A program made the translations under genes and the position numbers. Below, in pieces: positions 24,942 to 28,993 of a stretch of 64,000 bases of DNA. The stretch spans positions 300,925-364,924 of the forward strand of contig BCIN01000004.1 of NCBI GenBank assembly GCA_039545335.1, read 5' to 3'. Within the stretch, counting starts at the first letter, position 1. Each line of letters starts with the position of its first letter. The DNA comes from Kondoa subrosea. Taxonomy: Eukaryota. The notes beneath the pieces are model-generated. The model searched no databases, was not told where the DNA came from, and was given only the letters and a program-made list of their open reading frames with translations.

Positions 24942-25104
24942 TGCTTTGGACTATGCAGAATAGTCCAACGAGACATATGGATGAAAGCATACATTGCGCC
25001 ATTTTTTAGTTTTATGCTATGAGAAGTGTCATACAAGTTTTGCCCAAATGTTTCCCGTTTAGCAGCCGCTGTAACAGTACATCACAAATCAGCAATTCAA
25101 CATG

Positions 25105-27111
25105 TCAGGGAATAGTAGAAGCGGACCATTCTCTAGCCTCGACAATGTGACCGTTAGCTTGATTGGCATCAAAGACACCACCAGCAGCACCAGTAGCGTT
25201 GACGCCCTTAGCAGCCTTCAAGTCTGCGCTTTGCTTTTTGAGTTCTGCGAATCGGAGCTTAGGGACCGACAACCAGTTCACAATGAAAGACAAACCTTCA
25301 GGGTCCATGCCGAGATCGGATGCATCGACGAAAGCGTCCTTACCGACACCGCCAGTTTTGGTGTACTCAGGGAACTCCTTCTTGATGATTTCCTTGTGCT
25401 TCTTCAAGCAGTCGAAAAGTTCTTCCATTGAGGCTGTTGTCAAAGAATGTTAACACGACGGAAATCTGGTGAAGGTGGGAAGCTTGCCATCATTGATGAA
25501 AGTGCAAGTTCCTGAAATAGTATGAGCTCGGTTCGCTCAAAGGCACCAAGCTGCTCACCCATTGGCTTTGGTTCAGCGAACCATCTGTGAGCGGAAACAC
25601 AAAGTCAGAACGCTAGCATCTTTGTCTGTGACACAAGAACGCACTGCATGCCATCTGTAGATATCCAAGCATCGTAAGCCGTTTGCAAAGCACAATGAGG
25701 GGCAAAGGGCTTATCTTGTTTTCAAGATCGCTGCTGTAGCGACCTTGAGCAGCTGTTCATCGAACTGCTCATGGTCCAAAGAAAGGCCGACGCGAGAAAC
25801 CAGGGTGTGGAACTCTTGACGTTCAGCTTCGTCGATGTAACCACGCAACCAAGCGAGAGTGACAGCGTAGGACATGTCGATGATGATGGCATGACCGTGA
25901 CGAAGAGGAACAACAGGAGTGAGTTCAAGAGTAGGTGACCAGCTGAAATACTTTTGTTAGCCAGATTCGTTTGTCAAATAGAGGGGAATAGACTTACGTG
26001 TGACCGAAAGCGATAACTCGGTCCAACTTGATTTCGTGCAAGTTTGGTGATTCCAATTCCAACATGAGCTTGATACCACGTTCGCAAATGGAATCGGCAA
26101 TCTTGATGAGTTTCTCATCGTTAGTTGCTCGACCGAATCGAGTGTTGACAAGATCAGGTCCATACTTGACTAAATCGGTCCAGAGCGACTTGTCACCGAC
26201 GGAAGAAATCTTGATGAGTTCTGCGAAACCGTTTCTGATCTGGCCATCTGGCAAAGTCTTCAAGAAATCGAAGTCGAGAACAGTAATCATAGGAGCGTGG
26301 TAGGCACCGACTATTCGTTCGATTAGCCGTAGACTCTTTAATTGGCTGTCGATCGAAACTTACGTCTGTTCTTGAGCTTTTTGTGGTTGATACCGACTTT
26401 GATGGAAACGGCGGCATCGATCAAGCCGATGAGAGTAGTTGGGACACGAATGAAGTTGCTTGAGCGACGGTAAGAAGCGCAAGCGTAACCGGTAACATCG
26501 GTGACCTAAGACCATATTATTGACACCACGTCTTGGCGAATCAATGGATCGAGACATACCAGACCACCACCAACGACAAGAACAGGTTCTTTACGGATCA
26601 ATCCGAAGTCATCGAAAGCATCGACCAAGCTTTCCATGGTGTCCATGTTCTTGTTCAGCTCACCACCCTTCATGGTGTGAATAGTAACGGCGATGTTGTG
26701 ATGCTCGAAATAAGCCTTAATCTTGTCACCATAGAGCTATACTCGATACGTAGACATCAGACTCCACTCAAATGTGAAATTAAAAGGTCCGCATTTACCT
26801 TGGTAACTGGACCATCCATGACCACTAGGACTCTCTTCCATTTGGCATAGAAGTCAGACAAGATAGTCTGCTCTTTAGCGAAAGTATCGCGAGTGAATCG
26901 GAAGCCTATGAAATTACTCAATGAGTTGACCACGTTTTTGAAGTGATGACATGAAAAGCAAAGAAGACGTACCATAGTCCAGGTCTTCGCTACCTTTGAC
27001 ACGAAGAGCTTTTGTACCATTGGCAGTGAATTCAGAAACGTTGGCAGTGAGATCCGATGAAATTGGTCCATCCGATTTCTGGGTTGCAATGTGTACACCG
27101 TTTGTAGTCAT
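25105..27111 (-). CDS. Sedoheptulose 7-phosphate cyclase, demethyl-4-deoxygadusol synthase (DDGS, MysA-type)
   Basis: DHQS-fold motifs [46 protein letters not shown] and [14 protein letters not shown]-type segment [38 protein letters not shown] and KTRDG. About ten introns. Confidence 0.92.
25657..25714 (-). other. Non-canonical AT-AC intron (58 nt) in the DDGS gene
   Basis: Minus strand reads AAAACAAG|ataagc...gcttac...tatctac|AGATGGCATGCA. This junction restores K-T-R-D-G, and the unspliced frame hits TAA immediately. Confidence 0.75.
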
Positions 27112-27843
27112 GTTGAATGAGATTTGGTTGGAGTGTTGAACTGAGGTAAGTAGTGACAAGTTTCAGAGAGTCTAGGTTCAGGAAAAAAGACTGTTGCGTG
27201 AATTTATAACTTCTCGATGATCGAATCGCAGTAATCACATCGCCGGCAAACGTATATTGTCTCGGAGGGAATTGTTTACACATCGTCTCCAAGTAGTAGT
27301 TAGATAGGTACAACAGGGCTGCGAAAAGAAGGCACGAAAGGACGACGAAGGGCGGGCGGCACTTGAGAAGTCTAAAGTTTGTCTGCTTATGTAATGCACT
27401 TTGTTTATCCGATTGAGAGGGCGATGCAGTCAAGGAAAAGACTAAATTGCTGTCACATAGAGTATGTAAGGTGTACAAGCGCGTACAGAGGAGAGCCTGA
27501 CGATTTTCCAACCAGGGAATCATGTCCACTTTTTTGGCAGTACAGCGATGCCACGATATAGCAATCTCGACAGCAGCGCAATACTACTACGAGTTCCCTC
27601 TGCAGACGATGAAAGAGTAATTGGTATGAGACAATCAGAGCGAACAAGAAGAGAAAGCAATCGGTTCCTTATACGGAAGACATGAATTCAAGCAGGGAAA
27701 GAGAATGCACGAAAGGAGGGAAGGAAGCAAGAAGAGAAGAAGGGGACACCTGAATTTCGGATATCATATGATTGCCTGTCCCTTCCCTTGACACTTGCTA
27801 TCGTACACTTTTTCCCCCCGATCCCCATGCGTGTTGACCATGA

Positions 27844-28993
27844 TTAAAATCCCCAAAGTTTCTCGGCATTGCTCTTGAACACTCTTTCAACCGCTTTCTG
27901 ACCATCTATTTCCTGACACCATTCTTGAACCATCTTCGTCCATGCTCCAGTATCAATCTTTCCTTCATATCTTGTATGAGGCCAATCAGTAGCGAAGATC
28001 AATCTCTCCGGTGCTATACCCTCATACGTATCAGAACAATGATATTCGATCATGAATTCATTGGATGAAGGAGGCTCACCTAATTTGTATAATTCAACAA
28101 AGAGCGGTTTAAGAACTTGCCATGCTTCAGAAGAAGATTCTTTAGGTACGAATCGATATGCAGCAGAGATCTTGACGTAAATATTCTGCTTCTTATCATT
28201 CTTCAATAAGTCAAGCAAGTATTGAGCGTTATCAGGTAGTTCGTTAGTGTTGGATTGAGAAGGGAAATGAGGACCTGCGAAATGATCTATCGCTACTGGA
28301 ATACTGTTGTGTACAGTATCAGCAGAAAGAGATCGAAAGGACAAAGTCACACACTCGAGCGACGGCAAGACTTCTGACAAAGACTTGAGTTGATCCATAT
28401 GTAAATGTAGATCCAACACCCATCCATCAACCTTCTTGACAACCCTAGCTAAATCTCGGACTTGTTGCACCAAATCGCTATCCGAGACTGGACTGCTTGA
28501 ACTAGCCAAATTCAACCTCGCTCCTCTTATGCCTTGTGAGTTGAATTTGTGCAGTTCTTCATCTGTTATAGTCGAAGTATCTACTTCTACTACACCAACA
28601 GCTTTTGGAGATCCACCTAATTCTTGGATAGCAGAAATCAAAGCAGAGTTGTTCTTTCCATAGACTGATGGTTGTACAATGACCAATCTATCAAAATCTG
28701 TGTATCAATCAACGCATGAGCCTATTTCCAGCGATCATTGTTTGAAGGGATTAAGGCAATGCACCTGATAACTGGGATTTGGCTTCAGAAGTAGATGCTT
28801 TGGGCATAGGATAAGTCTTAACAAGGAGAGGAATAGCAGGATCAAAGATATGCATATGGGAGCATATGCTGCCTTTTGGTAGAGTAGAAGTCATACTCTT
28901 GGCAGAAGTAGACAATCGGAGTCTAGCAACGATATTGGAAGGAATTCGCGCTGGACACGTTGAGATGGATGTAGATTTGATCAAGAAGGACAT
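27844..28993 (-). CDS. Amidohydrolase_2 family protein (2-pyrone-4,6-dicarboxylate lactonase LigI-like)
   Basis: SHMHIFDP, VIVQPSVYG, GIRGARLN, VAIDHFA, YVKISAAYR, LIFATDWPHT, NAEKLWGF*. Confidence 0.9.

Follow-up and report, generated by a model that had tools for sequence, protein, structure and literature searches.

Introns bounded by AT and AC that carry a 5' splice site of the major type were defined as a U2-type (type II) class, with human SCN4A and SCN5A among the examples (Sheth et al. 2006, PMC1557818), and work cited in the same paper had proposed early that introns of fungal xylanase genes are of type II AT-AC. U2-type AT-AC introns have been described as having a strong /ATAAGT consensus (PMC5029451), and the source of that description also cites the finding of Parker and Siliciano (1993) that an engineered AT-AC intron is spliced in yeast. 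Annotated fungal AT-AC introns have been surveyed (PMC7072748). In Trichoderma, AT-AC termini were reported at 69 of 14,305 junctions (PMC4324775), while 13 AT-AC introns were counted among roughly 92,000 in Ganoderma lingzhi, one of which was confirmed by Sanger sequencing and shares its gene with a GC-AG intron (PMC11590231). Across more than 3000 genomes surveyed, neither Ascomycota nor Basidiomycota yielded a convincing minor intron (PMC10639083). The DDGS (desmethyl-4-deoxygadusol synthase) gene of Phaffia rhodozyma has been described as comprising 14 exons, with an ORF of 1434 bp encoding 477 amino acids (PMC10057719).

The locus described here lies in a window of 64 kb, the term being used for the whole stretch of DNA that was analysed. 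The sixth intron of a DDGS-like gene on its minus strand is likely to be a genuine AT-AC intron that is excised by the major (U2-type) spliceosome. The initial annotation had proposed a U2-type AT-AC intron followed by a 12-nt exon in a DDGS gene. The letters at the junction, the need for both elements to build the TRDG motif, the likeness of the product to DDGS and the U2-like character of the donor were all borne out, whereas the junction itself is read indirectly, from the mRNA of a relative.

Gene model and exon-intron structure

The DDGS-like coding region occupies 25059..27111 on the minus strand, as do all of its features given below, and opens with an ATG at 27111. A model of 12 exons was made by tracing open frames and splice signals, yielding a spliced sequence of 1434 nt, stop codon included, and a protein of 477 amino acids. 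Exons 1 to 5 were placed at 27111-26973, 26905-26799, 26736-26560, 26505-26364 and 26310-25998. Exon 6 (25715..25942) ends ...AILKTR, its last two bases being the AG of the arginine codon, and is followed by intron 6 (25657..25714), which is 58 nt in length with AT...AC termini and the 5' end ATAAGC at 25714-25709. The micro-exon that follows, exon 7 (25645..25656), is only 12 nt long; it completes the arginine codon with its first base, continues with Asp-Gly-Met and ends two bases into a glutamine codon. Intron 7 (25585..25644, 60 nt) is of the GT-AG type (GTGCGT...CACAG) and leads to exon 8 (25559..25584, 26 nt), which is separated by the GT-AG intron 8 (25512..25558, 47 nt) from exon 9 (25488..25511, 24 nt), ending ...FIND plus one base. 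Intron 9 (25434..25487, 54 nt) has GC-AG termini (GCAAGC...). Exon 10 (25433-25296), intron 10 (25245-25295, 51 nt, stop-free and in frame), exon 11 (25244-25127), the last intron, intron 11 (25069-25126, 58 nt, GTCCGC...TTACAG), and a 10-nt terminal exon 12 (25068-25059) complete the gene.

All 11 introns are between 47 and 67 nt in length, and intron 6 falls inside the range of the other ten. Nine have GT-AG ends, the exceptions being the GC-AG of intron 9 and the AT-AC of intron 6. Introns 6 to 9 (25434-25714, minus strand) crowd into 62 nt of coding sequence divided between exons of 12, 26 and 24 nt, and two of these four introns have non-canonical ends (AT-AC and GC-AG). With regard to an introner-like origin, comparison of the 11 introns by blastn with the window and with each other returned self-matches and chance matches of 8-14 nt only.

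A metagenome scan returned 452 stretches and 308 relatives. Among the best 80 of 308, which were kept, was a contig of 1582 nt from a related species (L001) that encodes a protein of 477 amino acids (P0002) without a break. L001 is taken to be an mRNA because the P0002 reading is uninterrupted. The removal of intron 9 is required to link FIND with ASMEEL, as they are linked in L001 and P0002. Retention of intron 10 would insert 17 residues and leave the protein unbroken, and an ORF at 25105-25449 spans this intron openly. The C-terminus of the protein, reached via the 10-nt exon 12, reads ...ARECGC and is the same in P0002, P0003 and P0005, while P0007 also ends ...CGC. A candidate role for this conserved Cys-Gly-Cys at the end of a cytosolic cyclase would be that of a prenylation-type CXC motif, although this is only a guess.

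Identity of the gene product and genomic context

P0002 is 96% identical to the predicted protein (456/477 amino acids) and was used for comparison with enzymes of solved structure. It scored 412 bits against PDB entry 5TPR, compared with 231 bits for the EEVS ValA (4P53) and no more than 138 bits for true dehydroquinate synthases. The entry 5TPR is presumably the DDGS of Anabaena; the title given by its depositors in the PDB reads '3-dehydroquinate synthase'. Since this best solved relative scores far above EEVS and dehydroquinate synthases, the gene product is regarded as a DDGS-like sugar-phosphate cyclase, DDGS being the first enzyme of the mycosporine sunscreen pathway, in agreement with the name given to the gene by the initial annotation. 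Pfam searches with single exons placed DHQS_C above its curated cut-off (exon 6, E 1.8e-06) and DHQ_synthase below its cut-off. An NCBIfam scan of P0002 returned AroB-type models only, all of them under their cut-offs.

The best matches of the DDGS protein that carry a name belong to Dacryopinax, Auricularia and Pterulicium, and those of a neighbouring PP4R3 gene to Microbotryum and Mixia (45%). As the best named matches of both genes are basidiomycetes, the window is assigned to a basidiomycete, perhaps one of the Pucciniomycotina to judge from these similarities. The gene is flanked by a convergent Vps52 gene on the plus strand, at about 22.7-24.9 kb, and by an Amidohydro_2 gene on the minus strand at 27844-28704. 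Pfam matches to an O-methyltransferase or an ATP-grasp protein were absent from the 13, 68 and 63 translated ORFs with which the window was covered, where short exons could hide such genes. Because neither kind of ORF turned up, the DDGS-like gene lies here outside a mycosporine cluster of the Phaffia type.

Splice junctions of intron 6

The minus strand reads ...TTG AAA ACA AGA TAA GCC... at the end of exon 6, where AILKTR meets TAA. The description of this junction in the initial annotation proved accurate throughout: there is no GT or GC donor where exon 6 runs into the stop codon; excision of 25714-25657, with AT at 25714-25713 and AC at 25658-25657 (the intron ending CTAC), gives T-R-D-G-M-Q; and the 12-nt exon at 25656-25645 is followed by a GTGCGT donor (25644...). 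A twin cut shifted by one base, TA...CA, yields an identical product and is equivalent to AT...AC because an A flanks either side of the cut.

The splice models available to this region were enumerated exhaustively. When any first intron was allowed together with a GT/GC-AG second intron, 38,621 models were free of stops, and just two of them reproduced the P0002 peptide in full (230/230), namely the AT-AC intron 25714-25657 or its one-base twin, each combined with the GT-AG intron 25644-25585. The claim that an AT-AC intron and a 12-nt exon are needed to build TRDG is thus upheld, this being the sole solution, apart from its twin, among the open models. Stop-free models with a single intron (n=1100) reached at most 207/230 against the homologous peptide of P0002. 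Canonical solutions were tried and rejected: eight open models with one intron reached no more than 129/230 with the loss of AILKTRDG, and the 192 open models with two introns reached no more than 175/230, AILKTRDG being lost in every one. The match of the AT-AC junction to the homologues is more than chance.

Alignment of the spliced model with L001 covered 1434 nt without gaps, of which 1223 (85.3%) were identical. The flanks of the junction and the 12-nt exon were identical in the two (exon 12/12), a comparison that, L001 being the mRNA of a different species with 85% DNA identity, speaks for the mature message and not for the genomic intron ends of that species. The conservation of TRDG asserted in the initial annotation was evident in an alignment of 13 near-full-length homologues (at least 434 amino acids) picked from 26 matches. 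T368 and D370 were invariant in 13/13 and R369 was conserved in at least 90%, and no insertions or deletions were present between AIL and FxND among these 13. The RDG residues align without gaps in the solved structures, as TRDG in the DDGS 5TPR and HRDG in the EEVS 4P53. Against L001, dN/dS was 0.046 over the full coding region and 0.085 when only exons 7-12 were counted, with dS about 1, and the exons downstream of intron 6 are under purifying selection. This value bears on intron 6 because the frame of exons 7-12 requires its removal in the AT-AC register.

A canonical-looking CAG two bases beyond the AC represents a potential rival 3' site, and intron 6 could in principle be cut mainly elsewhere, from AT to AG (25714-25655) or from GA to AG (25715-25655), with AT-AC excision minor or absent. 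The AG at 25656-25655 does stand directly after the AC, and such termini are on record in Ganoderma, with reported counts of 21 for AT-AG and 35 for GA-AG against 13 for AT-AC (PMC11590231). Both products, however, wreck invariant residues or the frame: as had been stated at the outset, use of the AG two bases past the AC shifts the frame, and the GA-AG cut yields T-N-G, one residue short and lacking Arg-Asp. The downstream frame is conserved and the micro-exon, when read in the AT-AC register, agrees in full with the mRNA of the relative, which argues that such cutting is improbable as the main route. The AT-AC junction, 25715^25656, is well supported by the comparative evidence, which includes the mRNA of the relative.

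Intron position in related genes

The relatives were pooled into a set of 133 proteins (P0001-P0026 and P0147-P0253), many of them genomic ORF fragments, and each was aligned to P0002. Homology was continuous across TRDG...FIND in 83 of the 133 and was lost earlier in the other 50. Of these early-ending fragments, 22 end at I365 (5), L366 (10) or K367 (7), three of the last group having been prolonged across 'VR' by the aligner. The break in these 22 of 133 falls about 5-9 nt upstream of the intron 6 site and is followed by a stop, Tyr, Phe or Val, codons from which it appears that the fragments read into a GT donor (...G/TAA, ...G/TAT or /GTN). The two closest fragments of this kind, P0147 and P0149 (86% and 82% identical to exon 6), end at K and L respectively, 6 nt and 9 nt upstream of the intron 6 site of the window and thus 3 nt apart. 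P0147, P0149, P0148, P0161, P0196 and others break at three or four points within the Ile-Leu-Lys codons, a pattern suggestive of several closely spaced intron positions within a single gene family.

Divergence after TR was confined to two distant fragments (P0203 and P0189), neither with a clear donor, and no convincing case of an intron at the exact position of intron 6 was found among the proteins and fragments of the 133 relatives. Conservation of the AT-AC ends is not claimed here, since none of these fragments convincingly shares the exact position. P0004 and P0026 would lack introns 6-9, because they are continuous from AIL to FIND although they run through other intron positions. P0151 likewise lacks intron 6 and diverges exactly at the position of intron 7 (DGKQ/C...). 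It would appear that an intron near the Ile-Leu-Lys/Arg codons is widespread and that its exact place varies. As the neighbouring intron of relatives seems to be placed 5-9 nt further upstream in 22/133, with donors compatible with GT, the position and dinucleotides of intron 6 appear to be lineage-specific as far as sampled, an observation that is new here.

Two suggestions can be offered for the origin of intron 6. The first, that an intron has been migrating at a hot spot and that the AT-AC intron is its most recent stage, the window alone having an intron after the second base of the arginine codon, is tentative and rather unlikely; if true, the locus would provide a natural series for intron sliding and for the birth of major-type AT-AC introns. 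The second is an origin in one step, in which the G/G of a canonical ...AGAG/GTAAGC... junction may have been lost. The AG of the old CAG would then become exonic and the preceding AC would serve as the new end, and this loss would also account for the AC-AG arrangement.

The same sequence logic can be read as damage. A recent lesion at a formerly canonical junction, for instance the loss of the two Gs that straddled ...AGAG/GTAAGC..., would leave little or no productive mRNA and make the gene a fresh pseudogene or a weak allele. One event is enough to explain the present letters, because restoring GG after ...ACAAGA recreates the canonical AG/GTAAGC and turns the CAG at 25657-25655 into a normal 3' site from which the same mRNA would result. 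All 12 of the 12 exons are open, however, and the constraint measured downstream of intron 6 (dN/dS 0.085) argues against a lesion, although a very recent event would still be compatible with these values. The major spliceosome is, moreover, able to splice introns that start with A and end with C (Parker and Siliciano, as cited in PMC5029451), and real AT-AC introns, at about 1 in 7000 in a basidiomycete going by the reported counts (PMC11590231), are likely commoner than exactly such a lesion. A lesion is for these reasons considered quite improbable, and a functional AT-AC intron is preferred.

Spliceosome type

The donor of intron 6, ATAAGC, fits TAAGY at all five positions from +2 to +6 (5/5) and follows an exon ending in AAG. 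Against the U12 consensus RTATCCTTT it has 4/9 mismatches, the ordinary introns of the gene having 4-6. The initial annotation had judged the donor to be U2-like rather than U12-like, and these figures agree. U12-type introns are recognised by a donor of the form /ATATCCTT and by a branch motif, TCCTTAAC, situated 10-26 nt before the 3' end; neither was present in intron 6, whose best match to TCCTTAAC differs at 3/8 positions and is 45 nt away from the 3' end. What was found instead is the combination that marks a U2-type AT-AC intron, that is, AT...AC ends and a 5' site of the major type save at +1, with no U12 5' site or branch motif. A candidate branch motif, CTTAC (25674..25678, minus strand), matches YTNAY; its A stands 18 nt short of the 3' end of the intron, and the YTNAY motifs of the other introns lie at 11-20 nt. 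CTTAC departs from CTRAY.

These observations bear on the view that intron 6 is a U12-type AT-AC intron removed by a minor spliceosome. The AT-AC termini and a faint resemblance of CTTAC to the U12 branch motif would favour it, but the donor is no closer to the U12 consensus than are those of ordinary introns of the same gene and no TCCTTAAC-like motif lies near the 3' end. The genes of the neighbourhood point to Basidiomycota, which are reported to be without minor introns in the survey noted above (PMC10639083), a report that also accords with the premise of the initial annotation that Dikarya lack U12 splicing. A scan of the 64-kb window with Rfam gave 0 matches, U11 and U12 snRNAs included, a result that says little about the genome outside the window. 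Taken as a whole, this evidence makes a U12-type intron highly improbable.

Support from DNA sequencing runs

Logan contigs assembled from two DNA runs, with word depths of 143 and 53, showed 0 differences from the assembly over 25050-27150. The initial annotation had named a G at the donor position in raw reads as a sign of assembly error, and both runs carried the letters of the assembly. The two runs argue against a slip of the assembler yet are not independent because they share one sample, which is possibly the source of the assembly itself. An error at the junction, in favour of which nothing was found, is scarcely credible given that both Logan assemblies agree base for base, albeit from this one sample, and that both termini would have to be wrong at once. 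In run X2, one Logan contig has a further match of 21 bases at 26565-26585, with one mismatch and a loose end, which is probably a chance short repeat.

Proposed splicing mechanism and implications

Even when all of the rival explanations are taken together, it is unlikely that the correct one lies among them, and splicing of intron 6 by the major spliceosome may be pictured as follows. The 5' site AAG/AUAAGC would be read like a normal GUAAGY site even though +1 is an A, and the branch would form near CUUAC, at a distance of 18 nt from the 3' end. The second step would use the first AC or AG past the branch, which is the AC at 25658-25657, the A at the first intron position pairing with the C at the last just as the two terminal Gs pair in normal introns. 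The next AG, two bases further along, would be skipped, its use giving a frame-shifted and non-productive mRNA, and the 12-nt exon would then be joined by way of the ordinary GT-AG intron 7.

Gene finders limited to GT/GC-AG introns will truncate or break the DDGS gene at AILKTR, and it could then be overlooked when basidiomycete yeasts are surveyed for mycosporine capacity. The suggestion of the initial annotation that splicing of intron 6 could be a rate-limiting or stress-regulated step found no support. General knowledge of splicing is unchanged by the case of intron 6, which provides a well-constrained example of an AT-AC intron in Dikarya for the major spliceosome, along with an exon of 12 nt and a rival AG at a distance of two bases, and hence a handy substrate with which to probe the choice of 3' site.

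Comparison with known systems

The gene resembles the DDGS of Phaffia rhodozyma in its basidiomycete host, its many exons and the dimensions of its product, the ORF being 1434 bp and the protein 477 amino acids in both. It differs in its surroundings, the Phaffia gene being described as part of a 7.9-kb cluster with an O-methyltransferase and an ATP-grasp gene (PMC10057719), none of which was found here.

With regard to the intron itself, the human SCN4A and SCN5A introns share the AT and AC termini and a 5' site of the major type, the sequence ATAAGC of intron 6 agreeing with /ATAAGT at 5/6 positions. Unlike these, intron 6 belongs to a fungal host, is 58 nt long and is followed by a 12-nt exon, and its splicing is deduced from sequence. 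The engineered AT-AC intron of S. cerevisiae and the endogenous one of RPL30 are similar in that a spliceosome without U12 joins introns that begin with A and end with C. AT-AC splicing of RPL30, however, is a side product of 1-2% that involves an atypical donor, whereas the AT-AC cut would be the sole productive route here.

Ganoderma lingzhi offers a close parallel, as a member of the Dikarya without a known minor spliceosome in which an AT-AC and a GC-AG intron occur in the same gene. There, as here, missing an AT-AC intron breaks the gene model. The two cases differ in gene and subphylum, and in that the Ganoderma junction was established by RT-PCR and Sanger sequencing whereas the present one rests on the mRNA of a relative. 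AT-AC introns are already documented in basidiomycetes, and the present case adds one member to them.
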